Below, piece after piece: positions 49,521 to 64,000 of a stretch of DNA of 64,000 nt. The DNA comes from Gaiellaceae bacterium (GTDB lineage: Bacteria > Actinomycetota > Thermoleophilia > Gaiellales > Gaiellaceae), in assembly GCA_035518115.1 (NCBI GenBank), contig DATIXY010000084.1, forward strand, positions 1,865 through 65,864, in the 5' to 3' direction. The translations under genes and the position numbers were made by a program. The notes beneath the pieces were generated by a model that made no database searches, had not been told where the DNA came from, and was given only the letters and a program-made list of their open reading frames with translations. Numbering within the stretch: position 1 is the stretch's first letter; the number at the start of each line of letters is the position of its first letter.

Positions 49521-50110
49521 TTCAGCGCATTCGAACGGACGGCGCCGTCCGCAGTGGCGCGGACGAGCAGCCCCTTGTGCGCGCCGGGGCACACCTTCGT
49601 GTTTGCCTGCGCAGTCATCGTCCGCTTCGATCCGATGTGCAGGACGAGGTTCGTGACCGACGCCGGCTTCCCGTTGTCGTCGAACGCCTGGGCGACGTAG
49701 CAGCCGCCGGTCGCCGCATTCAGCTGCAGCGTCGGCGGGCCGCCGTTCGGGCCGAAGGTCGCGTAGTACCAGAGGACATCGTCACCGTCCTTCAGGACGA
49801 CCTTGTCCGCACCGACCGGCGGCGAGGCGTTGTCGACCTTGAACACCCACCCGCTCGAGCCCGAGCCGGGATAGCGGCCGATCTGGTCGACATACGGGCC
49901 GAAGCCCGTGACGGTGACGTGGTAGTAGAACTCGCCCAGGATCGACGCCTGTTCGAGCGCATCCAGGGCACTCGTCGCGGTGACGGTCACCGGGGCCGGG
50001 GCGAAGATCGTCCGTGTCTTGCCCTCGACACGCACCTTGACGGTCGCCGCAAGAGCGGTCGCAGGCAGCGCGAGCGCCAGGACGACGAGCAGAACAACAC
50101 GCTTGGCCAC
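49517..50110 (-). CDS. secreted DUF4430 (transcobalamin-like C-terminal domain) protein
   Basis: The GTG at 50110 lies 5 nt after GGAAGGAGG. The signal peptide is VAKRVVLLVVLALALPATALAA. The core is SALDALEQA...GPYVDQIGRYPGSGSSGWVFKVDNASPPVGADKVVLKDGDDVLWYY, with the GW-containing DUF4430 signature. First gene after the riboswitch. Confidence 0.8.
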   Translation of the reverse strand: MAKRVVLLVVLALALPATALAATVKVRVEGKTRTIFAPAPVTVTATSALDALEQASILGEFYYHVTVTGFGPYVDQIGRYPGSGSSGWVFKVDNASPPVGADKVVLKDGDDVLWYYATFGPNGGPPTLQLNAATGGCYVAQAFDDNGKPASVTNLVLHIGSKRTMTAQANTKVCPGAHKGLLVRATADGAVRSNALK

Positions 50111-50143
50111 GAATCCTCCTTCCACGAGGGGCTCGGGTTATGG

Positions 50144-50295
50144 AGGGCGACCGGCAGGTCTTCTGACTCGGGGCTCCCCCTCCACCGCCTTCCCGGGCGC
50201 CCGGCCCAGTGACGTCGTGGTGGAGGGCATCTCCCCTCACAGCGGCGGGACCGTCCCGGACTCGCACCGGGTTCCCTCACCGCTCGCCCCTTCTC
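50144..50295 (-). promoter_or_regulatory. cobalamin (adenosylcobalamin/B12) riboswitch
   Basis: The minus strand reads GAGGGAAcccGGTGcGAgTCCgggaCgGtCCCGCCgCTGT ... CACTGGgccgggcgcccGGGAAGGC ... AGTCAGAAGACCTGCC (B12 box, 50168-50153). This is the conserved core of the cobalamin riboswitch family. A P1-like pairing joins GGGGCGA (50290-84) with TCGCCCT (50150-44). Downstream CCCTCC can pair with the GGAGG SD of the first gene. Confidence 0.9.
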
Positions 50296-50342
50296 TGATG
50301 GTCGCGAATCTAGCACGGGCCGCGTCCGTACACTGACCGGCG

Positions 50343-50570: not shown

Positions 50571-51968
50571 CTACGAGCCGAGGCGGAAGATGTCGAGCAC
50601 GCCACTCGTGGCGTGGTCGTTCGCGTTCCCCTCGGCGACCGCCACGCGGCCGTCGGCGACGATCGGGCTCTGCCAGTGCACCTCGGAGCCGATCGTGAGC
50701 GACGCCACCTGCTTGCCGCTCGCGGCCTCGTACACGTTGACCGCCCCGGACGTCGCGACGAACACGAGGCTCCCGGCGATTGCCGGGGACGTGCCGCTGG
50801 CACCGTTCGACCAGGCCGACCGAAGCCGCCCGCCGGCGAGCCGCCACGCCTGCGTCCCGGACTGGTCGCTGACGATCACCCAGGTCCCCTGCCAGACGGC
50901 CGGCTCGCTGAAGAGCGGGGCGCTGCCGGGGGTGGGCACCGTCTGGAGCTCGCCGCCCAGCTTCGCGTTCGGGCCGGGCAGGCGATCGAGCGCGAGTAGC
51001 CGCAGCTCACCGTCCTTCCCGCCCTGGACCGCATACCCGCCGGAGAGGAGCGCGGGGCTCGTCGAGCCGAGGTCGAGGTCGGCGTCGTTGAGGTGCTGCT
51101 GGTCGGCGGGCGTCCAGTGGCGAAGCAGCCTCGACGCGTCGGGTGAAAGGACGAGGACGCTGTCCCCCCAGTTGGTGCTGCCGTTCCAGGGCGCGTTGCC
51201 GGTGGCGACCACGAGGTCGCCCGTCGCAGGATCGACCGCTGCGCCGTTCCGCGACCAGATGGCGGAGTCGCTGGCGGAGCACGTGCTCGGGGTGATCAGC
51301 TCGTGGCGATCGGAGCAGAGCGAGTTCCAGACGTGCTGGATCGCGCCGGTGCGCTCTGACAGCGTCACCACGTGGCCCTGGTACGGCGGTGCGTCGCCGA
51401 TGTACCCGCCCGTCGTCACGAGCACCATCCCGCGCGAGACGTTGAGCGAAGAGGTCAGCTTCTCGTGCGTCGGGTCGCGGGTGACCGACGTCGTCCAGAG
51501 GACCTTGCCGTCGGAGATGCGGAGCTTCCGGATCTTGCCGTCGGGCGCCGCAGCGTAGATCGCCGTGCGATCGGTCGACGCGACCGGCGTCGCGTTGGTG
51601 ATCTGCGCGGTCCGGGCGAGCGACGAGTAGCTGGGCGGAACGTAGCGCCAGAGGACCTTCCCGTTCGCGGCGTTGATCGCCTCCGTCTTTCCGTACGTCG
51701 TCGTCACGAAGAACACGTCGTGCGTGGTACCGAACACCTTCACGCCGTGCAGGTAGATCGGAGACGAATCGACCGTCCCGTCGAGATGGACCTGCTGCCG
51801 CGTCATGTGCGAGACGTTGGCGGCGGTGAGCGTTCCGGCGGGCCCGACACCGTGGCGGGCCGTGTCGAACCCGAACCGCGCCCAGTCGGTCCCGCCCCCG
51901 GCCACCGACAGCGCGGTCGCCGGCAGCACGGCCACCGCAACGACGACCGCCGCGAGCGCGGCTCTCAA
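50571..51968 (-). CDS. secreted PQQ-like beta-propeller repeat protein
   Basis: The TTG at 51968 overlaps the upstream stop (TTGA). The signal-like N-terminus is LRAALAAVVVAVAVLPATALSVAGG. Repeated GKVLW-type blades follow (NGKVLWRY, DGKVLWTT, ...). The rest of the 977-aa track ORF is an out-of-frame artefact. Confidence 0.8.
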   Translation of the reverse strand: MRAALAAVVVAVAVLPATALSVAGGGTDWARFGFDTARHGVGPAGTLTAANVSHMTRQQVHLDGTVDSSPIYLHGVKVFGTTHDVFFVTTTYGKTEAINAANGKVLWRYVPPSYSSLARTAQITNATPVASTDRTAIYAAAPDGKIRKLRISDGKVLWTTSVTRDPTHEKLTSSLNVSRGMVLVTTGGYIGDAPPYQGHVVTLSERTGAIQHVWNSLCSDRHELITPSTCSASDSAIWSRNGAAVDPATGDLVVATGNAPWNGSTNWGDSVLVLSPDASRLLRHWTPADQQHLNDADLDLGSTSPALLSGGYAVQGGKDGELRLLALDRLPGPNAKLGGELQTVPTPGSAPLFSEPAVWQGTWVIVSDQSGTQAWRLAGGRLRSAWSNGASGTSPAIAGSLVFVATSGAVNVYEAASGKQVASLTIGSEVHWQSPIVADGRVAVAEGNANDHATSGVLDIFRLGS

Positions 51969-53554
51969 TGCGCGGCGAGGTCCGACGAGGAGACCCACGG
52001 GCCGGGCGGCGTCAGCAGCGACTCGGCGTGGAGGTACGCCAGGCCGGCGAGCGGCAGGTCGGCCCAGCGCTCGAAACAGAAGTACCGCCGCCGCCACTGC
52101 GGGAAGAACTTGCGGCTGAAGCTGTGCAGGCGTTCGAGCTGGAACAGCCGGTCGCCCTTGAGCAGCATGAACCGGGTCGCCCGGACGAACTTCGGGGCAT
52201 TCTCGTCCGCACGCAGGAAGTCGGCGAACACCGCGAAGTTGAGCGACAGCTCGGCGACGGCGTGGGCCCGCGCCCAACCGATCGTCTCCGTGATCAGATA
52301 CTCCATCAGCCCGTTCGGCGTCTCGCGCCTCCTGCGCATCGATGCCAGCGAGTAGCCTTCGCTCGCGGGCGACGGCACGAGCTGCAGGAAGCCGCCGACG
52401 ACGCCCGTCGGCCCGACGGCGACCGCAAGCACCGTGTCCGGGTACGCGAAGAGGGCGTCCATCGCCATCGTGAAGCCACGCTCGGGCCAGTTGCCGCGCC
52501 ACTCGCGCGAGACCACCTCGAGCTGGTGCCGCAGGGCGTCGTCGGCGTCGGCGACCGACAGCACCCGCACTCGGTACCCACTCTTCTCGAGGCGCGAGAC
52601 GGACTGGCGGACCTTGCGGATCGCGCGTCCGTCGAGTGAGAACTCGGACGGGCGGATCACCGCCTCGTCGCCCAGGTAGAACGACTTGAAGCCGAGGGCC
52701 GCATAGTCCTCGAGCGCCTCGCTCGCCGCGCCGGCCACGGCGACGCGCCAGCCCTTCGCCCGCGCCATCCGCACGAACTCGGCCATGAGCTCGCGCCGCT
52801 CGGACGCGTCCCCGATCGGATCGCCGGCAACGAGCGCCGTGCCGCCGACGACGCGGTACGCGAGAAAGGACCGGCCGCTCGGAGAGAAGACGTACGCCTT
52901 GTCGCGGCGCAACGCAAAGTACGCAAGGCTGTCGCCTCCGCTCTCGTGCACGAGCGCGGTCGCGCGCTCGTGCGCCTCGGCGGAGCAGGGCGTCGCGCCG
53001 GGCGGACGCAGCCACAGCCACAGGGCACGGAACGCGAGCGCACCGACCACCAGCGCCAGCGCCCGCACGATCCGGATCGACGTGTCGTCGGTCAGGTACA
53101 GCTCGCCGAGCAGGAGCACGGAGCACATGCCGATCGCGAGCGAGACCTGGACGAGCGGGCGGATCGTCGCCGGATCGCCGGGGGCGACGAACTGCCCGCG
53201 CGCCCGGAACAGCGCGAAGAGCAGCAGCAGGTGCACGGTTGCCTCCTCGACGTCGAGCCCCTGGGCGAGGTGCGCGACGGCGGATGCCGAGACGAGCGCG
53301 ACCGCGAGCACCCAGGCGCGGTGCTTGCGCCGCGCGAGGCCGCGGGCCAGCCAGATCGTCCCCACCCCCAGTGCGAGCACGAGCGTCCGGGCCGCGGCGG
53401 GCACGCCGGGCGGCAGGACGCCCTGTACGAGGCGCACGCGGTCGGCCATCTCCGGCGTCAGAGCCGAGACGATCGACAGCAGGCCCGCAGCGGCTGCCAG
53501 CCACGCGAGCAGAGTCGGGGTCGCCGGGCGGCGCACGTACCTCACGGTAGCCAC
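51965..53554 (-). CDS. MprF-like aminoacyl-phosphatidylglycerol synthase domain protein (TM N-terminus + DUF2156), no flippase domain
   Basis: 529 aa. About 5 N-terminal TM helices, then SLAYFALRRDK..F......FLAYRVVGGTALVAGDPIG...........F...A...GW..AV.GA and the C-terminal FFPQW..RY block typical of the MprF/LysX synthase domain. Confidence 0.85.
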   Translation of the reverse strand: MATVRYVRRPATPTLLAWLAAAAGLLSIVSALTPEMADRVRLVQGVLPPGVPAAARTLVLALGVGTIWLARGLARRKHRAWVLAVALVSASAVAHLAQGLDVEEATVHLLLLFALFRARGQFVAPGDPATIRPLVQVSLAIGMCSVLLLGELYLTDDTSIRIVRALALVVGALAFRALWLWLRPPGATPCSAEAHERATALVHESGGDSLAYFALRRDKAYVFSPSGRSFLAYRVVGGTALVAGDPIGDASERRELMAEFVRMARAKGWRVAVAGAASEALEDYAALGFKSFYLGDEAVIRPSEFSLDGRAIRKVRQSVSRLEKSGYRVRVLSVADADDALRHQLEVVSREWRGNWPERGFTMAMDALFAYPDTVLAVAVGPTGVVGGFLQLVPSPASEGYSLASMRRRRETPNGLMEYLITETIGWARAHAVAELSLNFAVFADFLRADENAPKFVRATRFMLLKGDRLFQLERLHSFSRKFFPQWRRRYFCFERWADLPLAGLAYLHAESLLTPPGPWVSSSDLAAH

Positions 53555-53572: not shown

Positions 53573-54256
53573 TTAAGACCTGCTGCCGAGCTTCTCGTCG
53601 CGCAGGAGGACGCGGCGGAGCTCGTCCTCCTTGCCAGGCTCGAGGATGGCGAGCACCTGGTCTCCCGCCTCGAGCTGCGTCTCGGAGTCGGGCACCTCGG
53701 CCTTCCCGTCGCGCACCACCGAGATGAGACGGGCGCCATCCGGCAGCTTGACGGCGCGGATCCGCTTGCCCTCGCAGGCGGCGCCGCGGTTGATCGTGAC
53801 CTCGACGATCTCGAGGTTCTCCTGGCGGAGCTCGATCAGCTGGATCAGCCCGTGCTCGGGCACCTCGTGCTCGACGAGCGCCATGATCGCGCCGGTCGCA
53901 GACACGGTCGGCGAGATCCCGAGCAGGTCGAAGTACGGCTGGTTGCGCGGGTCGTTGATCCGGGCGATCACCTTCGCCACGCCGTAGCGCTCGCGCGCGA
54001 GCTGGCAGATGACGATGTTGTCCTCGTCGTCGCCGGTCGCGGCGACGAGCAGATCGGGCGGCCGCTTGATGCCCGCACGCTCGAGCGTGTGCAGCTCGGT
54101 CGCGTCGCCGCGAACGACCTGATGCTCGAACTCGCCCTCGAGCCGGTCGAAGCGGAACGGGCGCTGCTCGATCAACGTCACCTCGTGGCCGGCGCGCAGA
54201 AGCGTGCGCGTGACGTTCGCGCCGACCTTGCCGCCTCCCGCGATCACGACGTACAT
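53573..54256 (-). CDS. trkA: Trk/Ktr system potassium uptake protein TrkA (RCK: TrkA-N + TrkA-C)
   Basis: The ATG at 54256 gives MYVVIAGGGKVGANVTRTLLRAGHEVTLIE (NAD Rossmann motif), and the C-terminal TrkA-C region (LEIVEV.I.....G..I....LP.GA.LISVVRDG). The track start is the GTG at 54265. Confidence 0.9.
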   Translation of the reverse strand: MYVVIAGGGKVGANVTRTLLRAGHEVTLIEQRPFRFDRLEGEFEHQVVRGDATELHTLERAGIKRPPDLLVAATGDDEDNIVICQLARERYGVAKVIARINDPRNQPYFDLLGISPTVSATGAIMALVEHEVPEHGLIQLIELRQENLEIVEVTINRGAACEGKRIRAVKLPDGARLISVVRDGKAEVPDSETQLEAGDQVLAILEPGKEDELRRVLLRDEKLGSRS

Positions 54257-54269
54257 GCCGGCCACCTTC

Positions 54270-54683
54270 TCACGTCGCGACCTCGGTCGACCGGACGGTC
54301 TCGACCAGCGTCTCGATCGCGGCCGAGGTCGGGCACACGATGCGCAGGCCCTTCTCCGCGTAGAACTGCGCCCGCGCCGGGTCGAGGATCCGGACGACCA
54401 CGGTCGGCACGTCGAACTGCTTCTGCGCCACCTGGGCGATCACGATGTTCGTGTTGTCGCCGTCGGTCGTGACCACGACCGCATCGGCGTCCTCGATCCC
54501 GCCCTCGCGCAGGAGCTGGAGGTCCATGCCGTGGCCGACCACGAAGCCGCCGGTCCAGTGCTCGCCCAGCCGCGCCAGCGAGTCCTCGTTCTCGTCCAGG
54601 ACCGTGACGTCCCAGCCCGACGCGGCGAGCTGGAGCGAAACGGCCGAGCCGACCCGGCCGCAACCGATGACGAGCGCCCTCAC
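54270..54683 (-). CDS. TrkA-N (RCK N-lobe only) NAD-binding protein
   Basis: 137 aa beginning MRALVIGCGRVGSAVSLQLAASGWDVTVLDEN. It ends before any TrkA-C domain. Confidence 0.85.
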   Translation of the reverse strand: MRALVIGCGRVGSAVSLQLAASGWDVTVLDENEDSLARLGEHWTGGFVVGHGMDLQLLREGGIEDADAVVVTTDGDNTNIVIAQVAQKQFDVPTVVVRILDPARAQFYAEKGLRIVCPTSAAIETLVETVRSTEVAT

Positions 54684-54707
54684 GACCCGGGAGGGTACAG
54701 CGGTCGC

Positions 54708-56600
54708 TCAGGTTGCCGCGAGCTCCTCGTCCATCACCGACTGGGGGAACGCGACGATCAGGACCTCGCAGGGCGCGTTGCGCAGGACGTAGTCCACCGT
54801 CGGCGAGAAGAACCGCGACTGGCGGCGCCAGCGGGGCGACGAGCCCAGGACGATCAGGTCGGCGTTCACGTCGCGCGCGTGCGACACGATCGCGGCACCG
54901 ATCGACCGTGCGCGGACGGTCGCTCCGTCGACGGTGACGCCGTGGTCGGCCCCGAGCAGCTTCGCCTCGGTGAGGGATTCGTCGGCCCGGTCCTGGTCCT
55001 GCTCGAGCGGCGCATCGATCGAGTTCGAGAGGTCGACGCGGATCACGTGCAGCGCCTCGACCGACGCGCCGTGCTCCTCCGCGAGCTTGACCGCGGTCGC
55101 CACCATCTCCTCGCCGATGATCCCGAGCTTCATCGGCACCAGGATCCGGTGCACGTCGAGCGCCGGCGTGACCGGCAGCTCGTCGGGCGCGCGGACGCGC
55201 TCGAGTAGGCCTTCGCCGTGCGACAGCCTGACGCTCACGAAGACCACCAGCCCGAGCGCGAGCCAGATCGGGCCGGCGTACCGGGCCGCGGGGTGGGTCG
55301 CCAGCGCCACGATCCAGACCACGAACGTCGCGATCGCCCCGACGATCGCCGGCAGCGGCAGCTCGACGCCGCGGATCGCGATGTTGAACGGCGCGCGAAA
55401 CGGCCGCGGCAGCCCGGGCTCGTCGATGCGCAGCTTGATCACCGCGAGCTGCGCAGCCGTGAAGGCGAGCAGCACGCCGAACGAGAACAGGCTGGCGAGG
55501 CCGGCGACGTCGTTCTTGACGAACGACGTGGCGATCACGAAGCCCGACGCGACGATCGCCACCGAGACGATCGCGATCGGCGAGACGTGCGCGCGCCGGC
55601 TGAGCCGCCCGAAGCCGCTCGGAAGCTGCCCGTGCTCGCCGAGCGAGTAGGCGAGGCGCGAGAAGCCGGAGATCGACGTGACGACCGCGGCGAGCAGGAT
55701 CAGTGCGCCGGTGATCCCGACATAGCCCCGCAGCACGTCCGCGACGCTCGACGGCAGCTCGGCGCCGATCCGGTCGGCGACGCCGAGCAGCGGTGCGTGC
55801 TCCCACTTCGTGCCGAGCTCGGTGTGCGGGCCCGGGAACGCCGACAGGGCGACGATCGCGATCGCGACGTACAGCGTGATCACCGTCACGAGGCCGCCGA
55901 ACACGGAACGCGGAAGGTCGACGCCGGGGCTGCGCGCCTCCTCGGCGAGGTTGGCGACCGTCTCGAGGCCCGTGAACGCGAGCATCGCCAGGGGGATCGA
56001 GAAGGCGATCGCGTGCCACGACGGGTCGGTGCCGATCGACGTGCCCTGCGTCAGCGCGTGGGGCGACCAGACGAGGGCGAACCCGAGCACGACGAGCAGT
56101 ACCTGCGTGAGCAGGTCAAGGGCGGGGATCAGGATCCCGACGCCGTACAGCGACGGCCGGCGCACCAGGCGCACCATCGCCACGCCGACGATCACGACCA
56201 CCGCGACGACCACGTCCCACGGGTTCCGGTCGAGCGCGCCGACGTGCAGCGCGCCCGCGAGGTAATGCGGCAGGAAGAGCGCCGAGAGGGCGATCACGAT
56301 CAGGTAGTCGAGGAAGAGCGCCCAGCCGGTGATGAACCCGGCGAGGTCGTTGGAGGCCCGGCGCACGAAGGTCGCCGCACCGCCCGTCTCGGGGAGCGCC
56401 GCGGTGCCTTCGGCGTAGGAGAGCGAGACGACGAGGAAGAGCAGCCCGACGCCGAGCAGGACGACTGGCGTGAAGCCGAGCGCGTTCGCCGCGATGACGC
56501 CGAGCGCGAAGTAGATCGACGACGCGACCTCGCCGTAGACGACCGAGAACAGGGCACGTGCGTCGAGCTCGCGCGTGAAGCCGGGGAGCTTGCGTGCCAT
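54708..56600 (-). CDS. APC superfamily permease fused to a C-terminal universal stress protein (USP) domain
   Basis: 630 aa. The APC core (ALFSVVYGEVASSIYFALG...GGAATFVRRA) covers about 12 TMs. It is followed by a USP fold (ILVPMKLG...LHVIRV...ADLIVLGSSPR....RFFSPTVDYVLRNAPCEVLIV). Confidence 0.9.
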   Translation of the reverse strand: MARKLPGFTRELDARALFSVVYGEVASSIYFALGVIAANALGFTPVVLLGVGLLFLVVSLSYAEGTAALPETGGAATFVRRASNDLAGFITGWALFLDYLIVIALSALFLPHYLAGALHVGALDRNPWDVVVAVVVIVGVAMVRLVRRPSLYGVGILIPALDLLTQVLLVVLGFALVWSPHALTQGTSIGTDPSWHAIAFSIPLAMLAFTGLETVANLAEEARSPGVDLPRSVFGGLVTVITLYVAIAIVALSAFPGPHTELGTKWEHAPLLGVADRIGAELPSSVADVLRGYVGITGALILLAAVVTSISGFSRLAYSLGEHGQLPSGFGRLSRRAHVSPIAIVSVAIVASGFVIATSFVKNDVAGLASLFSFGVLLAFTAAQLAVIKLRIDEPGLPRPFRAPFNIAIRGVELPLPAIVGAIATFVVWIVALATHPAARYAGPIWLALGLVVFVSVRLSHGEGLLERVRAPDELPVTPALDVHRILVPMKLGIIGEEMVATAVKLAEEHGASVEALHVIRVDLSNSIDAPLEQDQDRADESLTEAKLLGADHGVTVDGATVRARSIGAAIVSHARDVNADLIVLGSSPRWRRQSRFFSPTVDYVLRNAPCEVLIVAFPQSVMDEELAAT

Positions 56601-56765
56601 CTAGACCTTCCGCCGTGCGAGGTAGAGGCGGCCGGCGCCGGCCGCGATGAACAGTGCGCCGAGGAGGATGCCGACCCCGCCGCCGCGCGCGATCGTGATC
56701 GCGAGCATCGTGACGCCGAGCCCGACCATCAGGACTGCCAGCACCTCCACCGCCCTGATGCGCAT
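56601..56765 (-). CDS. 54-aa two-TM membrane micro-protein
   Basis: MRIRAVEVLAVLMVGLGVTMLAITIARGGGVGILLGALFIAAGAGRLYLARRKV. The ATG shares its A with the upstream TGA (TGATG), and its TAG is immediately followed by the next ATG (TAGATG). It is the tail of a spurious 1017-aa track ORF. Confidence 0.55.
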   Translation of the reverse strand: MRIRAVEVLAVLMVGLGVTMLAITIARGGGVGILLGALFIAAGAGRLYLARRKV

Positions 56766-58642
56766 CACGCCGCCTTCCGGCCCGCCGCGACCATCACGCG
56801 GCACGGTGCGTGCTTGAGCACGTAGTCGACGGTATGGCCGAAGATCGCACGATGGCGGCCGCGCGGGGCGCCGAGCACGATGATCTCCGAGACGCGGCGC
56901 TCCGCCTCGTCGACGATCGCGCGGCCGGCGTGCCGCGCGCGCACGACGCGCTCGACCACCCGCACGCCGTACGGAGCCGCGATCGCGCGAGCCTCGTCGA
57001 GCAGGCGGTCGGCCTCGGCGAGCTCTGCCGCCAGGTCGGCGTCGAGAGGAAGTTCGAGCGGGACGACGATCACCCGGAGAAGAACGATACGACCGGCGCG
57101 TTCGGTCGCCAGCCGCGCCGCGACCTCGACCGCGTCGTGCGACTCGGGCCCGGTCACGATCGGCACGAGGATCGACCGGTACTCGAGCGCAAGCGCCGGC
57201 CCGAGCGGGACCGGCGCGCGCGCGGTCACCGTCAGAGGGAGATGCGCGTGGAGGCGGTAGAGCGGGTAGAAGACGAAGCCGACCGCGAGCCATGCGAAGC
57301 CCGCGTAACGCGTCGCCGGATCCTGGATGACCACCACGAGCCAGGCAATGGCGGTGCCGAGCCCACCGAAGATCGCGAACAGGGGCCATGAGATGCCGCC
57401 GATCGTGATGTTCGGGTGGGCGCGCCACTGGCTCTCGCCGTCGCGATCCCGGATGCGCAGCGCGATCACCGAGGCCGCGGCGATCGTGAACGAGAGCATC
57501 GCCCCGAACGCGTACATGCGGCCGAGAAAGTCGACCTGGCCGGAGATCAGGAAGATCGTCGGCCCGATCGCGCCGAACACGACCAGCGCGAGCCACGGCG
57601 TCTTCAGCTTCGGGTGCAACCGCCGGAACACCTCCGGCAGCTGGCGATGGCTGGACATCGCGTACGTGATTCGCGATGCGCCGATCACGCCGGCGTTCGT
57701 CGCAATGAAGAGAATCGTCGCGGCGAGGATGCCGACGTACACCTTTGCGGTCGAGAGCGTGAAGCCGTGCAGGCCGAGGTTCTCGACGAGCCCGAGCACC
57801 GGGTCGTTCTTGAACCCTTCCGGTGGGGCCTGACCGAGCCTCGTCACGTACTCCCCGCCCACGTGCACGACCGGCATCGCCGAGAGCGCGATGAACGGGA
57901 GCGTGAAGTAGATCGCGAACACGGCGATCGCGACCCACGAGATCGCACGGGGGATCGACCGCACCGGGTCGCGCGCCTCCTCGGCGAGGTTGGAGACCGT
58001 CTCGATCCCCGTGTACGCGATCATCGCGACCGGGATCGCGAGCAGGAAGTTGCTCCACGTCGGCGCCACGCCCAGGTGCACGTTGTGGACGAGCACGTGC
58101 GGGCTGAAGATCAGGAAGAACCCGAGCGTGACGAGCAGCAGCTGCGTGGCGAAGTCGATGACGGCGAGGAAGATGTTGAGCCCCGCCGCCTCCTTGATCC
58201 CGATGATGTTGATCCCGACGAGCAGCCAGGTCAGCGTGATCCCGACGACGATGTCCCAGGGGTTCGTGCGCAGCGGCTCCCAGAAGATCGAGAGGTAGTG
58301 CGGCACGAAGATCACCGAGATCGCGACGGTGATCACGTAGTTGAGCATCTGCGCCCAGGCCGCCCCGAAGGAGACGAGCTCGTTGAACGCGTGGCGGGCA
58401 AAGCTCGACGAGCCGCCCGCCTCGGGGAAGCGAACGGTGCCCTCGGCGTACGTCGCGGCGATCGCCGCGAAGATGATCCCGCTGATGATGAAGACGATCG
58501 GGGTGAGGCCGAGCGCGATGCCGGCGGTCAGCCCGAGCGCGTAGTAGATCGACGAGCCGACGTTGCCGTACGCGGTGGAGAAGAGCGCGGGTGCGCCCAG
58601 CACCCGTTCGAGGCCATGTGCTTGTCGGCGCCGCCTGGGCAC
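56765..58642 (-). CDS. APC superfamily permease fused to a C-terminal USP domain (paralog of 54708-56600)
   Basis: 625 aa with ALFSTAYGNVGSSIYYALG...GGSSSFARHA. The C-terminal USP is ILVPIVTG...RVIVVP...SEIIVLGAPRGR.RAIFGHTVDYVLKHAPCRVMV. Confidence 0.9.
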   Translation of the reverse strand: MPRRRRQAHGLERVLGAPALFSTAYGNVGSSIYYALGLTAGIALGLTPIVFIISGIIFAAIAATYAEGTVRFPEAGGSSSFARHAFNELVSFGAAWAQMLNYVITVAISVIFVPHYLSIFWEPLRTNPWDIVVGITLTWLLVGINIIGIKEAAGLNIFLAVIDFATQLLLVTLGFFLIFSPHVLVHNVHLGVAPTWSNFLLAIPVAMIAYTGIETVSNLAEEARDPVRSIPRAISWVAIAVFAIYFTLPFIALSAMPVVHVGGEYVTRLGQAPPEGFKNDPVLGLVENLGLHGFTLSTAKVYVGILAATILFIATNAGVIGASRITYAMSSHRQLPEVFRRLHPKLKTPWLALVVFGAIGPTIFLISGQVDFLGRMYAFGAMLSFTIAAASVIALRIRDRDGESQWRAHPNITIGGISWPLFAIFGGLGTAIAWLVVVIQDPATRYAGFAWLAVGFVFYPLYRLHAHLPLTVTARAPVPLGPALALEYRSILVPIVTGPESHDAVEVAARLATERAGRIVLLRVIVVPLELPLDADLAAELAEADRLLDEARAIAAPYGVRVVERVVRARHAGRAIVDEAERRVSEIIVLGAPRGRHRAIFGHTVDYVLKHAPCRVMVAAGRKAA

Positions 58643-58674
58643 GGCCAGAGATGCTAGGGGCTGGCGCGGAGGAA

Positions 58675-58702
58675 GGTGCCTGGCACCCAGGTGCCGGGCA
58701 CC
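58675..58702. repeat. tandem pair of 13-bp palindromes
   Basis: GGTGCCtGGCACC (58675-87), then ca, then GGTGCCgGGCACC (58690-702), in the 66-bp gap between the kimA-like stop and the APC-USP start. Confidence 0.5.
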
Positions 58703-58708
58703 GGACGC

Positions 58709-60988
58709 CTACCGGAAGAGCTGGTAGGGGACGCTCGAGAGGATCACGTGCGGCTCGAAGAGGAGCAGCCGCTTCACGTAGATCGCCCGCTGGTTGTGCA
58801 GGACGCGGGACCACCCGCGCACGACGATCTCCGGCATCACGACGTTGACCACGGTCTCCGGGTCGGCCGTCAGCTCGCGGATGTACGCCAGGAGCGGCGT
58901 CCCGACGTCGCGGTACGGGGCGTCGCTCAGGTCGAGCGGCATCATGACGCCCGTCTGCGTCCAGCGGTCGGCGAGCTGGTCGGCCTCGGCGCTGTCGAAC
59001 GCGAACGACACGGCGCGGGTGTCCTCGATCCCCAGGGAGTCGGCGTAGGTCAGCGCGCGCAGCGAGCCGGCGTGGATGTCCGAGATCAGGACGCGCACGG
59101 CGAGACGGCTCGGGGTGACGCCCTCCGGCCCGCGCCGCTGCGACACCACCGGGACGTCGGCGATCACCGTCCCCGGCTCGGAGAGGAGCCGCAGCTTGAG
59201 CCGGAACGAGGTGCGCGTCGCGGCCCGCAGCAGCGAGCGGCCGCGGAACTGCTCCGGGACGACCACGGTGACGAAGTCGGACTCGCTGCGAGGAAGGCTC
59301 CACACCTCCTCGAGCACCGCCTGCGTCCGGCCTTCGTCGGTCGCGAGCCGCTCCAGCTTCGGCCCCGACGGCGCGTAGTCGAACCAGCGCGGCCTGATCG
59401 CCGAATCGGTGTGCCTGCCCGGCGTGAGCACCGCGCGGATCGACTGGTTGTCTGCGATCTGGCGCGAGTACCAGAGCGCGCCCTCGGTGGCGACGTCGAG
59501 TGACTCGACCCACAGGAGCACGTGATTCGTCGCCGGACCGGCGGCGCGGATGGCACCCACCCCGGCCGCCAGCCGGCGGGCGAAGCGCCGGTAGTGGCGG
59601 TTGATCCCGACGAACGCGAGCACGAACAGCGGGATCGCGACGATCACGAGCCACGCACCCTCGGTGAACTTCGTCCAGATCACGACCAGCGTGACGAGCC
59701 CCGTGGCCGCCGACCCGACACCATTGAGGGCGGCGCGGTAGCGCCAGCCGGGGTCGCGCGTCCGCAGCCAGTAACGGACCATCCCGGCCTGCGACAGCGT
59801 GAACGCGCTGAACACCCCGATCACGTAGAGGTGGATCAGCGAGTCGACGCTCGCGTTGTAGATGATCAGCAGTGTCGACGCGATCGCGGCCAGCACGATG
59901 ATCCCGTTCGAGAACACGAGCCGGTCGCCGAGGTTCGTGAACTGGCGGGCGAAGAAGCGGTCACGCGCGAGCAGCGCCGCGAGCCGGGGGAAGCCCTGGA
60001 ACGACGTGTTGGCAGCAAGCACCAGGACGGCGAGCGTGAGGATCTGGACCGCCCAGTACATGAAGGCGCTCCACGAGCCCGAGGGGAAGACGCCTCGGGC
60101 CAGCTGCGAGAGCACCGACGGCGTGCCCGAGTCGGCGGGAATCGCGTTCATGTGCACGGCGAGCCACGACACGCCGACGAACATCACGATCGCGATCGTC
60201 CCGAGCGTCGCCAGCGTCTTCGCGGCGTTGCGCCCGTGCGGCCGGCGGAAAGCGTTGACGCCGTTAGCGATCGCCTCGACTCCCGTGAGCGCCGTCGATC
60301 CGGACGCGAACGCGCGCAGGACCACGAACAGCGTGACGGCGCCGGTGCCGGCCGCGATCGGGTGCGGGACGACCGCCTGCGGGCAGCCGGAGGTCGCGCA
60401 CTTCGTCACTCCCGTTCCGATCAGCACGAGGATCGCCGTCACGAACGCGTACGTCGGCAGGGCGAAGAGCACGCCCGCCTCCTTGACCCCGCGCAGGTTC
60501 GCGAGCGTGATCAGCACGACGCAGATCAGCGACAGGCCGAGCTCGTGGCCGCGCAGCGCGCTCACCGCCGAAGTGAGGGCGAGAACCCCGGCGGCGACGG
60601 AGACGGCGACCGTGAGGATGTAGTCGGTCAAGAGCGCCGCCGCCGCGACCAGGCTCGGCACGCGGCCCAGGTTCTCCTTGGCGACGATGTAGGCGCCGCC
60701 CGACGTCTCGTAGGCAAGCACCGTCTGCCGGTACGAGGCGATGACGATCGCGAGCAGCAGCGCGATGCCGAGCGAGATCGGGAACACGAGGTGCGCGGCA
60801 CCGGCCGAGGCGCCGACCAGGACCACGAGAGCCGCCTCGGTCGCGTAGGCGACGGACGAGAGCGGATCCGACGCGAAGATCGGGAGCGCGAGCCACTTCG
60901 GGAGCAGCGTCTCCTCCATCTGGTCGGACGCCATCGCAGGCCCGACGACGAAGCGACGGAGGCGCGGCCTGCCTGCCTGGGTTGTCAC
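58709..60988 (-). CDS. KimA (YdaO)-like APC-superfamily potassium/proton symporter with large cytoplasmic C-terminal domain
   Basis: 759 aa. LPIFASDPLSSVAYATEAAL, SYRQTVLAYETSGGAYIVAKENLG, LLTDYILTVAVSVAAG and ANTSFQGFPRLAALLARDRF match conserved blocks of Bacillus KimA as I recall them. About 300 aa of soluble C-terminus follow. The GTG start overlaps the upstream stop (GTGA). Confidence 0.8.
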   Translation of the reverse strand: MTTQAGRPRLRRFVVGPAMASDQMEETLLPKWLALPIFASDPLSSVAYATEAALVVLVGASAGAAHLVFPISLGIALLLAIVIASYRQTVLAYETSGGAYIVAKENLGRVPSLVAAAALLTDYILTVAVSVAAGVLALTSAVSALRGHELGLSLICVVLITLANLRGVKEAGVLFALPTYAFVTAILVLIGTGVTKCATSGCPQAVVPHPIAAGTGAVTLFVVLRAFASGSTALTGVEAIANGVNAFRRPHGRNAAKTLATLGTIAIVMFVGVSWLAVHMNAIPADSGTPSVLSQLARGVFPSGSWSAFMYWAVQILTLAVLVLAANTSFQGFPRLAALLARDRFFARQFTNLGDRLVFSNGIIVLAAIASTLLIIYNASVDSLIHLYVIGVFSAFTLSQAGMVRYWLRTRDPGWRYRAALNGVGSAATGLVTLVVIWTKFTEGAWLVIVAIPLFVLAFVGINRHYRRFARRLAAGVGAIRAAGPATNHVLLWVESLDVATEGALWYSRQIADNQSIRAVLTPGRHTDSAIRPRWFDYAPSGPKLERLATDEGRTQAVLEEVWSLPRSESDFVTVVVPEQFRGRSLLRAATRTSFRLKLRLLSEPGTVIADVPVVSQRRGPEGVTPSRLAVRVLISDIHAGSLRALTYADSLGIEDTRAVSFAFDSAEADQLADRWTQTGVMMPLDLSDAPYRDVGTPLLAYIRELTADPETVVNVVMPEIVVRGWSRVLHNQRAIYVKRLLLFEPHVILSSVPYQLFR

Positions 60989-61434
60989 GTCGTCTTTCGT
61001 CGCTCGAGTGCCGTCAGCGCACGCTCCGCTTCACGGCGGGCAGCGTCCGCGCGGGCGCGGTCGTAGAGCGGGCTGTGGGAGTCGGTGACGAGCCGGTCGG
61101 CGAGCAGGACGCCGCGCGGCAGCACGTGCACGTCGAGGTCGGCGAGCCGGCTCGCGAGCGCGAGCAACTGGGAACGCGCCGAGCGCACCGCGACGCGGTT
61201 GAGCGGCGAGGCGCCGGGGAGCCGCGTCCCGTCCGCCTCGTGCACGACGTCCGTCAGCCCGCGCGACACGCCGAGGCGGTACTCGGGAGCGACCAGCTCG
61301 CGCACGCGCCACGCGAGCCGCGGCGACGGCAGCACCGAGGCGATCAGCTCCTCGTCCGCGGCGCGCCGCTCTGCCTGGAGCGCGCGGCGCTTCTGGAGCT
61401 CGCGCACCGGTTGCAGGACGCGAATCGAGACCAT
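60985..61434 (-). CDS. hypothetical protein (149 aa, no recognisable family)
   Basis: ATG start at 61434. The strong GC3 bias is consistent with coding. It is translationally coupled (GTGA) to the kimA-like gene. No SD was seen upstream. Confidence 0.55.
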   Translation of the reverse strand: MVSIRVLQPVRELQKRRALQAERRAADEELIASVLPSPRLAWRVRELVAPEYRLGVSRGLTDVVHEADGTRLPGASPLNRVAVRSARSQLLALASRLADLDVHVLPRGVLLADRLVTDSHSPLYDRARADAARREAERALTALERRKTT

Positions 61435-61501
61435 GCGCCCACGGTAGGAGGCGCCGTCTCAACCGCGACTGAGGATTGGCCGGCCCCGCCTCAAGGACTC
61501 C

Positions 61502-62182
61502 TCAAAGGACGAGGCGGTACCCGGCGCCGGGCTCCGTCAGCAGGTGGCGCGGAGCCGACGGATCGGGCTCGATCTTACGGCGGAGCTGGGAGACGTAGAC
61601 GTGCAGGTAGTTCGACTCGTCGCCGTACGCAGGCCCCCAGACCTCGCGCAGGATCGTACGGTGCGTCAGCAGCTTGCCCGGGTTGGTGGCGAGCAGCCGA
61701 AGGATCCCGAGCTCGTGCGGCGTCAGGTGCACGAGCTTGCCCGACACCTCGACCGACTGCTTCTCGAGATCGAGCCTGACGTCGCCGAACACGATCACCG
61801 GATCGCCGCCCGTCGAGGACCGCCGCAGAGCGGCGCGCAGGCGGGCGAGCAACTCGCCGATCGCGAACGGCTTCGTCACGTAGTCGTCGGCGCCGGCGTC
61901 GAGCGCCGCGATCTTCTCGTCCTCGTCGCCGACCGCGGAGACGACGATGATCGGCGCGGTGCTCCACTGGCGAAGCTCGCGGCACACCTCGGTGCCCCTG
62001 CCGTCCGGCAGGACGAGGTCGAGGATCACCGCGTCCGGTGAGTTGAGCCCGGCGGCCGTGATCGCGTCGCCCGCGCTCGTAACCGCTTCCACTTCGTAGC
62101 CGGCGCCGCGGAGGTTGGTCGCGAGCGCGCGCAGGAACTGCGGCTCGTCGTCGACGACGAGCACCCGCGGGCCGCCCGTCAC
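61502..62182 (-). CDS. kdpE: OmpR-family response regulator KdpE
   Basis: The GTG at 62182 (GTGA overlap with the kinase stop) gives VLVVDDEPQFLRAL...LDLVLPDGRG...LRQWSTAPIIVVSAVGDEDEKIAALDAGADDYVTKPFAIGELLARLRAALRR, the KdpE hallmark region. A winged-helix output domain follows (YLHVYVSQLRRKIE). Confidence 0.9.
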   Translation of the reverse strand: MTGGPRVLVVDDEPQFLRALATNLRGAGYEVEAVTSAGDAITAAGLNSPDAVILDLVLPDGRGTEVCRELRQWSTAPIIVVSAVGDEDEKIAALDAGADDYVTKPFAIGELLARLRAALRRSSTGGDPVIVFGDVRLDLEKQSVEVSGKLVHLTPHELGILRLLATNPGKLLTHRTILREVWGPAYGDESNYLHVYVSQLRRKIEPDPSAPRHLLTEPGAGYRLVL

Positions 62183-63435
62183 CGCAGCGCCTCCTTCGCG
62201 ACCCGCTCGGCCGGCAGCGTCAGGCTGGCGCACGTGCCGCCTCCGTCGCGTGGCGCGAGCGTGAGCGAGCCGCCGTTCGCGGTGGCGAACCCGCGGGCGA
62301 TCGCGAGCCCGAGGCCGGCCCCCCGGCCGGCCGCCCGCCCGCGCGAGAAGGGCTCGAGCAGGCTCTCCGCCTCGTCGGGCCGGATGCCCTCGCCGCGATC
62401 GTCCACGTCGATCGTCACGCCGCCTTCACCCTCCCGCGCCGACACCGACACGGGCGCGCCGGGGGGAGAGAACTTGAGCGCGTTCTCGATCAGGTTGACG
62501 AGCGCACGCTGCACCTGGGTCGCGTCGACGCGGGCGGCCGGCAGGTCGTCGCCGACGTGCACCTCGACCGAGCCGCGTCCGATCTCGTCGACGGCGAGCA
62601 TGACGAGGTCGCCGACGTCCCAGAGCTCGGGGTGCGGCACGGCGGCGTCGGCCTGAAGCCGCGACAGGTCGAGCAGGTTCTCGACGAGGCGGGTGAGTCG
62701 CGCGAGCTCGCTGCCGATGGCCTCGAACAGTTCGGCCCGGTCTTCGGAGGAGAGTTCGACCTCGGCGCTCGACAGCCCGCCCAAGGCCGCAGTCATCGTG
62801 GCGAGGGGCGTCCGGAAGTCGTGCGAGACGGACTGGATGATCGTCGTCTTGATGGCGTCCGAGCGCCGCAGCGCCTCGGCCTCGTGCGCCTGCTCCTCGA
62901 GCTGCTCCCGCTCCTCCGCGACCTCGAGCAGAGCTGCGAGCGCGGCGTCGAACCGCGTCCGCGCACGCTCGTCGGCGCCCTCCAGGACGATGTCGGAACG
63001 CGCTCGGATCTCGTCGACCGAGGCGTCCCGGTGCAGGAGCTCGGCGGCGGTGTCCGCGAGCAGCGCCGCCTCGCGCTCGCGCTGGCCGGCCTCTGCGGCG
63101 CGGCGGCGCGCCTGGGCAGCGAGCTGGCTCGCGATCACGGCACTCACGACGTACACCGCGAGCGCGGCCCAGTTCCGGCCGTCGGCGAGTGTCAGCGTGT
63201 GGACCGGAGCGAGGAAGAAGAAGTTGAACGCGAGCATCGACGCGATCGCGGCCCCGATGCCGTACGCCATTCCGTAGTAGGCGGCGACGATCAGGACCGC
63301 CGGCGTGTAGACGACGCCCAGGCTCAGCGTCGGCGCGACCGGGCGGAGCGCGTACACGATCCCGGTAGCTGCCGCGAGCACCACGATCGTGCCGACGATC
63401 GGCGGTACCGCGTCGACCGTAGAGCGAAGCCGCAC
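62179..63435 (-). CDS. kdpD: KdpD-like sensor histidine kinase, C-terminal half only (DUF4118 membrane domain + HisKA + HATPase_c)
   Basis: 418 aa. A 3-4 TM N-terminus (DUF4118-like), a coiled linker, the H-box SVSHDFRTPLATM, the N-box LVNLIENALKFS and the G-box GAGLGLAIARG. It lacks the N-terminal KdpD sensor and USP domains. Confidence 0.85.
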   Translation of the reverse strand: MRLRSTVDAVPPIVGTIVVLAAATGIVYALRPVAPTLSLGVVYTPAVLIVAAYYGMAYGIGAAIASMLAFNFFFLAPVHTLTLADGRNWAALAVYVVSAVIASQLAAQARRRAAEAGQREREAALLADTAAELLHRDASVDEIRARSDIVLEGADERARTRFDAALAALLEVAEEREQLEEQAHEAEALRRSDAIKTTIIQSVSHDFRTPLATMTAALGGLSSAEVELSSEDRAELFEAIGSELARLTRLVENLLDLSRLQADAAVPHPELWDVGDLVMLAVDEIGRGSVEVHVGDDLPAARVDATQVQRALVNLIENALKFSPPGAPVSVSAREGEGGVTIDVDDRGEGIRPDEAESLLEPFSRGRAAGRGAGLGLAIARGFATANGGSLTLAPRDGGGTCASLTLPAERVAKEALR

Positions 63436-63633
63436 GGCGCAACGCTACCTCCGTCAGGCTGCGTCACCGTTCGCAGCTAAACTTGTCCGCCATGGCAACT
63501 GCGCACGGAGGTGAGCCGGTGGTCCCTGGCAGTACAGGGCGAAAACACGTGTGTGCGCGCGCGACGCTGTCTGGGCGCTTCTAGCGTCTTGTAGTCGTCT
63601 GCGTGCGCGGGCGGCTACTGGCTCAGACAGGTG

Positions 63634-64000
63634 ATGCAGAGGTGGAACATCTTCGGGGGCCGGCGCCTGCGACGGCGCCCGGTCCTTCGCGGCCGTCGTC
63701 TGGTCGTCGGCGTGCAGCTGCCGCAGCTGGCGTTCCTGGCGGTGCTGGGCCCGGGCCTCGTGAGCGGCTTTGCCGACAACGACGCCGGCGGGATCACGAC
63801 CTACTCGGTGGTGGGAGCACAGTTCGGCTATGCGCTCTTGTGGGTCGTGCTCGCGAGCATGATCGCGCTGTTCGTGACGCAGGAGATCGGTGCGCGGCTG
63901 GGCCTTGCGACCGGGCGCGGGCTGCTCGACCTGGTGCGGGAAGGGTTCGGGATCCGCTGGGCGGCACTGGCGATCGCGACGATGCTGCTTGCGAACCTGG
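63634..64000 (+). CDS. Nramp (SLC11)-related divalent cation transporter, N-terminal fragment (3' end outside window)
   Basis: The frame is open from the ATG at 63634 (or GTG at 63631) to the window end: ...LAFLAVLGPGLVSGFADNDAGGITTYSVVGAQFGYALLWVVLASMIALFVTQEIGARLGLATGRGL. This aligns with the Nramp TM1-TM2 region (GPG....D-P-G-N....GA.FGY.LLW). It is absent from the ORF track because no stop lies in the window. Confidence 0.8.
   Translation, partial: MQRWNIFGGRRLRRRPVLRGRRLVVGVQLPQLAFLAVLGPGLVSGFADNDAGGITTYSVVGAQFGYALLWVVLASMIALFVTQEIGARLGLATGRGLLDLVREGFGIRWAALAIATMLLANL

Follow-up and report, generated by a model that had tools for sequence, protein, structure and literature searches.

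The potassium-homeostasis genes in the 64-kb stretch of DNA analyzed here, from the soil actinobacterium Gaiellaceae bacterium (contig DATIXY010000084.1; hereafter the window) fall into two separable modules. Module A comprises a short KdpD-type histidine kinase (KdpDs), the response regulator KdpE, a 149-residue protein (U149) and a homologue of the K+/H+ symporter KimA, while module B comprises two permeases with a C-terminal Usp domain (APC1 and APC2), a 54-residue peptide (P54) and two RCK proteins, TrkA_N and TrkA. The best explanation of this locus and its relatives is a hub, in which Gaiellales keep variable K+-homeostasis genes beside an H+-pyrophosphatase (H+-PPase) gene as two separable modules. 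For the function of the two modules together, the account we favor, and regard as reasonably probable, is as follows. KdpDs would act as the histidine-kinase half of a split KdpD and, with KdpE, activate under K+ limitation a promoter that lacks a -35 box and begins at the kdpE stop codon. Here this promoter would transcribe U149 and kimA, while in sister genomes the equivalent promoter would transcribe (U149)-kdpF-kdpA-kdpC-kdpB-kdpD_N-c25-kimA. In the absence of the pump cassette and KdpD_N, KimA would be the inducible uptake system at the locus. Module B, with its own promoter and translationally coupled, would encode an APC-Usp heterodimer with a two-transmembrane (two-TM) subunit, regulated by a nucleotide-sensing heteromeric RCK assembly; its cargo could be a cation such as K+, or else an osmolyte or amino acid with a link to K+ balance.

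Gene content was read from the window and from a further 4.7 kb beyond it on L006, a 42.9-kb contig from the same organism (labels of the form Lnnn, such as L007 or L010, denote related loci compared with the window). Coding status was judged by the G+C content of third codon positions (GC3) and domains were assigned with Pfam and NCBIfam profiles. Although the window is about 71% G+C overall, GC3 values of 0.91-0.97 single out one frame for each proposed minus-strand gene (Table 1). All genes and domains named in the original prediction are present, and the GTGA overlaps that it reported at kdpDs/kdpE and U149/kimA are real; in addition, the p54 start overlaps the apc1 stop and the p54 stop abuts the apc2 start. 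The same ten genes occur in L007 (a 2.26-Mb contig on which KdpDs is 80.6% identical), with identities from 84% (P54) to 96% (TrkA). Because U149 and P54 retain 88% and 84% identity there, respectively, these two open reading frames (ORFs) are under selection and represent real genes.

Table 1. Genes and predicted regulatory features of the two modules and their immediate surroundings (window coordinates).
Feature	Position	Strand	Description
-10 box of kdpDs	63442-63447	-	TAGCGT, 6 nt before GTG; leaderless-type; read from sequence
kdpDs	62179-63435	-	Short KdpD-type histidine kinase, 418 aa (Pfam/NCBIfam)
kdpE	61502-62182	-	OmpR-family response regulator, REC + Trans_reg_C; closest model KdpE
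Putative KdpE box	61458-61505	-	Four YTGAG-type direct repeats, phasing 0/+11/+32/+43
-10 box of U149	61441-61446	-	TACCGT, 11 nt past last repeat, 6 nt before ATG
U149	60985-61434	-	149 aa, no family
kimA	58709-60988	-	KimA/KUP-type K+/H+ symporter homologue, 759 aa; AA_permease_2
Hairpin	58675-58702	-	GC-rich, just past kimA stop; -27.2 kcal/mol, z = -2.1
-10 box of apc1	58651-58656	-	TAGCAT, 8 nt before GTG 58642; putative leaderless promoter
apc1	56765-58642	-	AA_permease + C-terminal Usp (Pfam)
p54	56601-56765	-	54-aa two-TM hairpin peptide, no family
apc2	54708-56600	-	AA_permease + Usp (Pfam); paralogue of apc1
trkA_N	54270-54683	-	RCK N-lobe only, 137 aa, GxGxxG intact; Pfam TrkA_N 8e-24
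trkA	53573-54265 (alternative start 54256)	-	TrkA_N 4e-27 + TrkA_C 1.9e-13; 227-230 aa
MprF-type gene	51965-53554	-	LPG_synthase_C, membrane N-terminus, 526-529 aa

A conserved repeat element lies between kdpE and U149-kimA

The spacer between kdpE and U149 is 67 bp long and conserved in both length and sequence. It contains four direct repeats (minus strand: TTGAG at 61501-61505, TTGAG at 61490-61494, CTCAG at 61469-61473 and TTGAG at 61458-61462), the first of which includes the kdpE stop codon, and their phasing puts the box on one helix face as two 11-bp pairs. No -35 box is found at the U149 promoter, while the arrangement TANNNT-N6/7-RTG is invariant 5' of the U149 position in all aligned loci. 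From its sequence, this promoter looks like an activator-dependent, leaderless one. Direct repeats that end about 10 bp before a -10 box resemble the pho-box-like arrangement of PhoB-type class II promoters.

Alignment shows the repeat element conserved in 14 loci, including ones whose KdpD is as little as 56% identical. With a position weight matrix derived from 10 loci, a scan of 1.6 Mb from related loci returned one match per locus, always at the same position, and no others over threshold. Similarly, 18 of the 20 matches to the strict pattern YTGAG-N6-YTGAG in 1.47 Mb fall in this element. Inside the window this pattern occurs once against an expectation of 2.7 (one mismatch) and by itself is not rarer than chance; the weight of the element therefore comes from its conservation across genomes, not from its rarity in the window.

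What follows the element varies between loci. It adjoins U149-kimA in the window and in about 12 other loci, and stands directly 5' of kimA in L039 and L047. In pump-bearing relatives it precedes U149 and then kdpA (L010), or kdpA itself (L012), while in L017 a diverged form is followed by a 27-aa peptide, kdpF and kdpA. In L046 and L067 it lies 5' of an extra APC-Usp paralogue. In relatives that have the pump, the element serves as the promoter of the kdp genes, and its place is always after kdpE; we infer that KdpE is the most economical candidate for the protein that binds it. Two loci show additional genes in this region: in L017 the 27-aa peptide, which is hydrophobic, is encoded at 527-700 between the promoter element and kdpF, and in L091 an IS200-like Y1 transposase gene (Y1_Tnp; 12170-12667) is inserted between kdpE and the element, with the element and U149-kimA intact downstream.

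These observations bear directly on the original prediction that a Kdp-type two-component system had been rewired to control a KimA-type transporter. As a check, that prediction had named a search for a KdpE box upstream of 61434 and 63435. The repeat element is indeed located 5' of 61434, downstream of kdpE, while none is found 5' of kdpDs at 63435, and the only copy in the window fronts U149-kimA. The proposed control is thus supported by a conserved promoter between kdpE and U149-kimA. The proposed history is not, as kimA was already part of the kdp operon. Because the equivalent promoter fronts the kdp pump genes in sister genomes and kimA is already in that operon, no new binding sites are needed.

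The window carries a pump-less version of a split-KdpD system

KdpDs consists of a four-TM DUF4118 domain (PF13493, E = 9e-25, residues 15-119), a helical linker of about 75 aa, HisKA (3.7e-13) and HATPase_c (1.9e-22), and its translation contains the H-box SHDFRTPL and the G-boxes. Pfam searches of the 418-aa protein gave no match to PF02702 or Usp, nor to GAF, with just about 75 residues (120-195) between DUF4118 and HisKA. Its top NCBIfam model is KdpD (148.5 bits, with a full-length cut-off of 1123), to which it aligns only from profile position 633. This short form is widespread: we found 4846 homologues, the best of which (about 120) span 365-460 aa, lack the KdpD domain and, where named, come from Gaiellaceae metagenome-assembled genomes (MAGs). 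For KdpE, the top NCBIfam model is KdpE at 232.6 bits (cut-off 325), followed by MtrA at 179; synteny with kdpF/kdpA in L010, L012 and L017 speaks for its being a KdpE orthologue.

The part of KdpD absent from KdpDs is found elsewhere in relatives, as a stand-alone 361-aa kdpD_N gene beside kdpB whose product matches PF02702 (E = 5e-91) and, weakly, Usp. Pfam confirms KdpA, KdpC and KdpB together with this stand-alone KdpD_N(+Usp), and the block kdpA-kdpC-kdpB-kdpD_N-c25 lies between kdpE/U149 and kimA in, for example, L010, L012, L013, L015-L017, L035, L050, L067 and L075. In L034 and L037, kdpD_N-c25 is instead directly 5' of kdpDs, preceded in L034 by a kdpB fragment. From these arrangements, KdpD is split in Gaiellales, with the serine-kinase half traveling with the pump genes and the histidine-kinase half with kdpE. 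A split KdpD class (ASK + HK) has already been described (Silberberg et al. 2024, PMC11018627), and the N-terminal domain of KdpD is a serine kinase that phosphorylates and inhibits KdpB (PMC11018627). The window locus is a pump-less version of this split-KdpD regulatory system in which kimA has been retained. The earlier suggestion that the Usp module missing from KdpDs appears instead on the two permeases is not supported: the KdpD_N+Usp half is a separate gene beside kdpB in relatives, and the permeases bear Usp at every locus, whether KdpD is full, split or short.

Two features of the pump-bearing loci deserve mention in their own right. The gene order is kdpA-kdpC-kdpB, versus the canonical kdpA-kdpB-kdpC, in most of them (L010 1264-5569; also L012, L015, L017, L035 and L067), while L074 (933-5223) retains the canonical order. 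The c25 gene (L010 6659-7147, L017 6159-6650, L034 1960-2409) encodes a protein of 148-185 aa that matches no Pfam family. It comes after the stand-alone kdpD_N in every case, and the split KdpD system may have in it a third component.

As originally noted, neither kdpFABC nor trkH is present in the window: tblastn with KdpA, KdpB, KdpC, KdpD_N, TrkH, CPA2 and H+-PPase queries from relatives gave no match in the 64 kb. The pump genes are not just beyond position 64000 either, because on L006 the Nramp-type gene that begins near the window edge is followed there by an MgtE_N/CBS gene, and the 4.7 kb that L006 adds encode no KdpA, KdpB or KdpC. One alternative is that KdpDs and KdpE serve a kdpFABC operon elsewhere in the genome, with the adjacency of kimA being a remnant of rearrangement and kimA being expressed independently. 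We consider this unlikely. It is true that KdpE orthologues stand directly 5' of kdpF or kdpA in L010, L012 and L017, that KdpB is common in Gaiellaceae and that only about 69 kb of the genome is visible. However, the only copy of the element in the window fronts U149-kimA, the four-gene unit holds together away from module B in L090, and the KdpD_N half that acts on KdpB is likewise absent from the locus. In addition, the best 120 KdpB homologues listed (85-100% identical) include none placed on the kdp-less contigs that carry KdpDs, which is weak evidence. A kdpFABC operon elsewhere would also be compatible with kimA as an additional target.

Some considerations count against KdpE control of U149-kimA as we propose it. 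The search for kdpFABC spans 64 kb plus 4.7 kb, so that a copy elsewhere is possible; the four YTGAG-type repeats, in their GC-rich context, are unlike the AT-rich KdpE half-sites of E. coli; and the case for KdpE binding is one of position and conservation. A response of this promoter to K+ is likewise a prediction.

KimA retains transport residues and is coupled to U149

The KimA homologue aligns with B. subtilis KimA (PDB 6S3K) over residues 10-473 to 5-461 (phmmer E = 4e-111); since the alignment begins at residue 10 of the 759-aa form, GTG 60988 is the likely start. In the pairwise alignment, D36, Y43, D117, T121, S125, T230, E233, Y377 and R337 are all identical. Of the residues assigned in B. 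subtilis to the K+ site and gate (D36, Y43, T121, T230 and Y377) and to proton coupling (E233) (PMC6994465, PMC10284832), each is conserved in 16 of 16 Gaiellales KimA homologues. The C-terminal lobe, residues 636-756, aligns to 481-604 and keeps H579, N580 and Q581, as well as R337, while S582 is replaced by R. With its HNQ motif conserved, this lobe is a candidate c-di-AMP-binding domain. A search of Rfam gave no match to the c-di-AMP (ydaO) riboswitch near kimA.

In the unit behind the box U149 comes first, and its translation is coupled to that of kimA. It has 436 homologues, all hypothetical proteins of Thermoleophilia type, and no match in Pfam or among PDB sequences. Its AlphaFold2 model is all-helical (pLDDT 88.3, pTM 0.81), and comparison of this model with PDB folds gave no match (best E 0.65). 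At the loci examined U149 always comes after kdpE, with the Y1_Tnp gene intervening in L091, and in L029 and L037 it carries an N-terminal hydrophobic extension. Its role might be to assist either KimA or the sensor.

The two modules occur apart and are predicted to form three transcription units

To place the locus among its relatives, we used an alignment of APC1 and APC2 to scan GTDB genomes, one for each species, which identified at least 581 relatives. The best 80 loci, all from Gaiellales/Thermoleophilia MAGs with APC2 identities of 40-91%, were used; their ORFs were called by codon bias, clustered and mapped, and key clusters were confirmed with Pfam. Module B, in the order apc1-p54-apc2-trkA_N-trkA, is present in essentially all 80 species, whatever adjoins it upstream. 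Specifically, apc1 comes before apc2 in 68 of the 71 loci where this can be judged, and 75 of 81 loci have a P54-like two-TM ORF in between. The trkA_N gene follows apc2 in 71 of 75 evaluable loci, and trkA follows trkA_N in 73 of 75, the exceptions containing both genes in frameshift-broken form. Exact copies of apc2 also occur on 5 metagenome contigs. By comparison, the upstream side is variable: among the 54 loci with a full 10 kb upstream, 34 are without kimA, kdp genes and kdpE, and there the H+-PPase gene abuts apc1, while 16 have kimA and 12 have kdpB (9 with both, 7 with kimA and no kdpB). Module A is itself coherent: when homologues of KdpDs or U149 (down to 52-56% identity) are the entry point, every locus examined shows kdpDs-kdpE-U149-kimA, and in L090 this unit occupies a different genomic site without module B. 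The kimA and apc1 genes look frameshift-broken in long-read MAG contigs (L088/L089, L010, L017 and other MFD or ERZ250395xx contigs); the cause is probably indels introduced during assembly and not pseudogene formation, and automatic gene calls are disturbed there.

A putative promoter is also found in front of apc1, where TAGAGT/TACAGT/TAGCAT-N6-8-GTGCC is present in nearly all loci, whichever gene is upstream. Because this -10 box and the N-terminus are conserved, APC1 most likely starts at GTG 58642 and has 625 aa. The GC-rich hairpin past the kimA stop may be a terminator or attenuator between the modules, and a comparable GGTGCC/GGCACC palindrome pair follows kimA in L007 and L088/L089. 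A gap of 195 bp separates kdpDs from its divergent upstream neighbor, an Nramp-type gene that starts at about 63631; in relatives kdpDs abuts a same-strand Nramp or H+-PPase gene instead.

On this evidence, the region is best read as three leaderless units: kdpDs-kdpE, U149-kimA and apc1-p54-apc2-trkA_N-trkA. The original prediction had treated the genes as one supercluster on a single strand, and it could be argued that one KdpE-controlled promoter, 5' of kdpDs, drives them all as a single operon that reaches trkA and beyond. The genes do share one strand with short gaps, and a scan for sigma-70 consensus promoters gave no match, with the sole terminator-like match lying inside apc1 and no strong U-tract terminator detected. 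Nevertheless, a single operon is very improbable given the three conserved promoters of the form TANNNT-N6-8-start, the position of the repeat element downstream of kdpE, not 5' of kdpDs, the hairpin after kimA, and the frequency with which the modules occur apart (34 of the 54 fully evaluable loci have module B and no module A, and L090 shows the reverse).

Module B is a conserved unit of paired permeases and RCK proteins

The two permeases are 38.5% identical to each other and match PF13520 at 5e-36 and 1e-36. Their best NCBIfam models score 106-109 bits against cut-offs of 382-557, so that no substrate subfamily is reached. A profile comparison of the APC-Usp and KimA families with HHalign gave a probability of 99.3%, and the equivalents of KimA Y43, Y118, S125, T230, E233, N237 and Y/F377 are conserved in APC-Usp, with D or N at the D117 position. 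A manual TM1 alignment that set an APC-Usp N/E against KimA D36 was dropped, as MAFFT and HHalign place P/R/N there. Between the permease genes, the P54 peptides share the motif ...GGG..G..LG.LF.A.G.GRLYLLRRR.

Because the genes overlap or abut, the permeases always come as a diverged pair and the peptide is conserved, the genes of module B most likely encode one complex. Since the RCK genes never separate from the permease genes, we also consider it likely that the RCK proteins are physically and functionally coupled to APC-Usp. This agrees with the suggestion in the original prediction that the RCK proteins regulate the adjacent permeases and not a Trk channel, which stands as an inference from a five-gene unit kept in about 80 species. 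K+ itself as the substrate of APC-Usp is a more tentative proposal, which we would place somewhat below an even chance. Relevant to the proposed RCK coupling is what else lies near module B. A trkH gene adjoins it on the opposite strand in 23 of 79 loci, and always brings a separate full-length, 441-aa two-RCK trkA, which provides TrkH with a dedicated RCK partner. In 6 of 79 loci there is also a CPA2 antiporter accompanied by a TrkA_C protein.

Several results weigh against K+ transport by these permeases or their gating by RCK proteins. Searched against the PDB, APC-Usp matches the amino-acid transporters CAT, xCT and ApcT at E of about 1e-13 and KimA at 5e-7; the essential K+ ligand of KimA, D36, aligns to P/R/N; and an E233-type glutamate is common in APC amino-acid transporters and does not discriminate. 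A general caveat is that many of the relatives are nanopore MAGs with frameshifts. Finally, on a plasmid of the haloarchaeon Halobellus an APC-Usp gene is followed by trkA and trkH in one operon; this association of APC-Usp with trkA speaks for the coupling proposed here, but the presence of TrkH means that adjacency need not imply direct gating.

These results could reflect a different division of labor, in which the APC-Usp pair are amino-acid, polyamine or osmolyte permeases, the TrkA_N and TrkA proteins regulate KimA or a distant TrkH/KtrB, and all are co-expressed for osmotic adaptation. The NCBIfam as well as the PDB matches of the permeases, the lack of conservation at D36 and the Halobellus operon are all consistent with this, and in Nonomuraea and Streptomyces the TrkA pair adjoins KimA and not an APC-Usp gene. 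On the other hand, KimA is not adjacent at most Gaiellales loci, yet the RCK genes never leave apc1-p54-apc2; the gene ends overlap or abut as they do for subunits of one complex; and the adjacent TrkH has its own TrkA. In L046 and L067, furthermore, it is an APC-Usp paralogue that stands behind the putative KdpE box, in the place of kimA/kdp. We therefore regard this alternative as doubtful, and retain RCK regulation of the permeases as the preferred reading of module B.

TrkA pairs adjoin KimA homologues in other Actinobacteria

The best 80 of at least 581 relatives in the APC1/APC2 scan are all Gaiellales; TrkA pairs from outside this order were found in Nonomuraea and Streptomyces, in chromosomes that are listed as plasmids in PLSDB. 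In Nonomuraea gerenzanensis the pair is divergent from, and beside, a KimA homologue (40% identical), and in Streptomyces sp. BHT-5-2 it is part of a K+ hub with kimA, a membrane protein with two TrkA_N domains and kdpABCDE. In Streptomyces fungicidicus p1 (L095 8529-12657) the pair directly follows, and overlaps, a gene for a 939-aa cation-transporting P-type ATPase, in surroundings that look dormancy-related (Usp, nitroreductase and Hsp20), which adds a further example of small TrkA proteins beside a transporter other than TrkH. An APC-Usp homologue of Nonomuraea (26-27% identity) has no TrkA within 12 kb, and such distant homologues are uninformative.

Streptomyces venezuelae is reported to have no TrkH or KtrB and two KimA-like proteins (review, PMC10117811), and in M. 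tuberculosis ceoB and the adjacent Rv2690c share the same Tn-seq phenotype (PMC12216072). Rv2690c is annotated only as an integral membrane protein. From its gene arrangement, it may be KimA-like or APC-like. The adjacency of KimA and TrkA supports, without proving, RCK control of APC-superfamily transporters. A broader conjecture, which we put forward as less probable than not by a clear measure, is that the small tandem RCK proteins of Actinobacteria (TrkA_N + TrkA; mycobacterial CeoB/CeoC) regulate LeuT-fold APC-superfamily transporters and not TrkH/KtrB, the partners being APC-Usp/APC-Usp/P54 in Gaiellales and KimA-like proteins in Actinomycetes. If true, this would establish a novel class of secondary transporters, for K+ or K+-linked, under RCK regulation and would explain "Trk" function in actinobacteria that lack TrkH, including M. 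tuberculosis.

Other genes around the hub

Several neighboring genes recur with the hub. The MprF-like gene lies directly 3' of trkA after an 18-27-nt gap, an arrangement shared by the closer relatives (15 of 79 loci), and its transcription may be joined to that of module B. Further downstream, the genes at 48190-50035 (minus strand; clusters c7/c8/c10) are conserved neighbors of the hub in many relatives, and a cobalamin riboswitch (RF00174, 96.3 bits) is found 5' of them at 50136-50299 (minus strand). Between kimA and apc1, a gene of 259-260 aa with no Pfam family is present in L092 (14732-15511), L099 (10747-11529) and L100 (10769-11551) and absent from the window. At the opposite end, the Nramp-family neighbor (window 63631-64000, plus strand; L006 1991-4554; L007 7455-9981) has the N-terminal motif GFADNDAGGITTYS, where DPGN is usual. 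It is paired with the MgtE_N+CBS protein in the same organism and in relatives, and in L007, L092 and L100 it lies on the same strand directly 5' of kdpDs. This pair may be an Nramp-related Mg2+ or metal transporter with a soluble regulator.

Significance of the two modules

Module A would offer a natural experiment for the recently proposed tandem-kinase model of KdpD. The serine-kinase half is found together with the pump that it phosphorylates; the histidine-kinase half and KdpE are still present where the pump is missing, and there a K+/H+ symporter appears to stay under their control in response to K+ limitation. The repeat element also provides a concrete promoter candidate in a high-GC phylum in which no KdpE box has been defined. 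Module B is a conserved, previously undescribed gene unit that makes the question of the TrkA partner in Actinobacteria testable. TrkA-type proteins of M. tuberculosis and Streptomyces matter for K+ homeostasis and drug tolerance, a puzzle given that no obvious TrkH partner is present, and the APC-Usp/RCK unit and the adjacency of KimA and TrkA point to APC-superfamily transporters as the missing partner.

Comparison with known systems

Like other Kdp systems, the window encodes a sensor with a DUF4118 membrane domain and a HisKA/HATPase_c core, followed by a kdpE start that overlaps with GTGA. As in the split-KdpD class, sister genomes place this pair 5' of kdpF-A-C-B, with the KdpD_N+Usp gene after kdpB. 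Unlike KdpDE-kdpFABC, the window locus is without the pump genes and the KdpD_N half, and its downstream unit is U149-kimA. The symporter resembles B. subtilis KimA/YdaO (6S3K, 8B70) in its transport residues, R337, HNQ motif and cytosolic C-terminal domain, but has 759 residues versus 607, the roughly 160 additional ones lying between TM domain and conserved C-terminal lobe. In place of a c-di-AMP (ydaO) riboswitch, it has translational coupling to U149 behind what appears to be a response-regulator-type promoter.

For module B, the permeases are like APC amino-acid transporters (CAT, ApcT/GkApcT, LAT) in their AA_permease_2/AA_permease fold and fused C-terminal Usp domain, and these are their best PDB matches. 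They differ from the usual APC members in the TM1 signature YG[EN]V[AG]SSIY, in place of GxG, in a TM3 sequence, L(D/N)YxI(T/V)xAxS, that resembles that of KimA, and in that their genes always come as two paralogues, accompanied by those of a small peptide and two RCK proteins. The RCK proteins are small, with GxGxxG intact, as in Trk/Ktr systems, and trkA has TrkA_N + TrkA_C as in KtrA/CeoB; like ceoB-ceoC, there are two tandem RCK genes that also adjoin the gene of an integral membrane transporter. Unlike Trk/Ktr, no TrkH/KtrB is encoded in the window, one of the RCK proteins lacks the C-lobe, and the invariant neighbors are LeuT-fold APC-Usp permeases and a two-TM peptide. RCK regulation of APC-superfamily transporters did not turn up in the literature searched. 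The closest parallels are KefC/KefFC, KhtTU and Streptomyces CpeAB, in which a soluble or fused RCK/KTN module likewise acts on a secondary transporter, and the CPA2 + TrkA_C pairs in 6 of 79 related loci are of this type; what would set module B apart from KefC, KhtTU and CpeAB is that its proposed membrane partner belongs to the APC superfamily.

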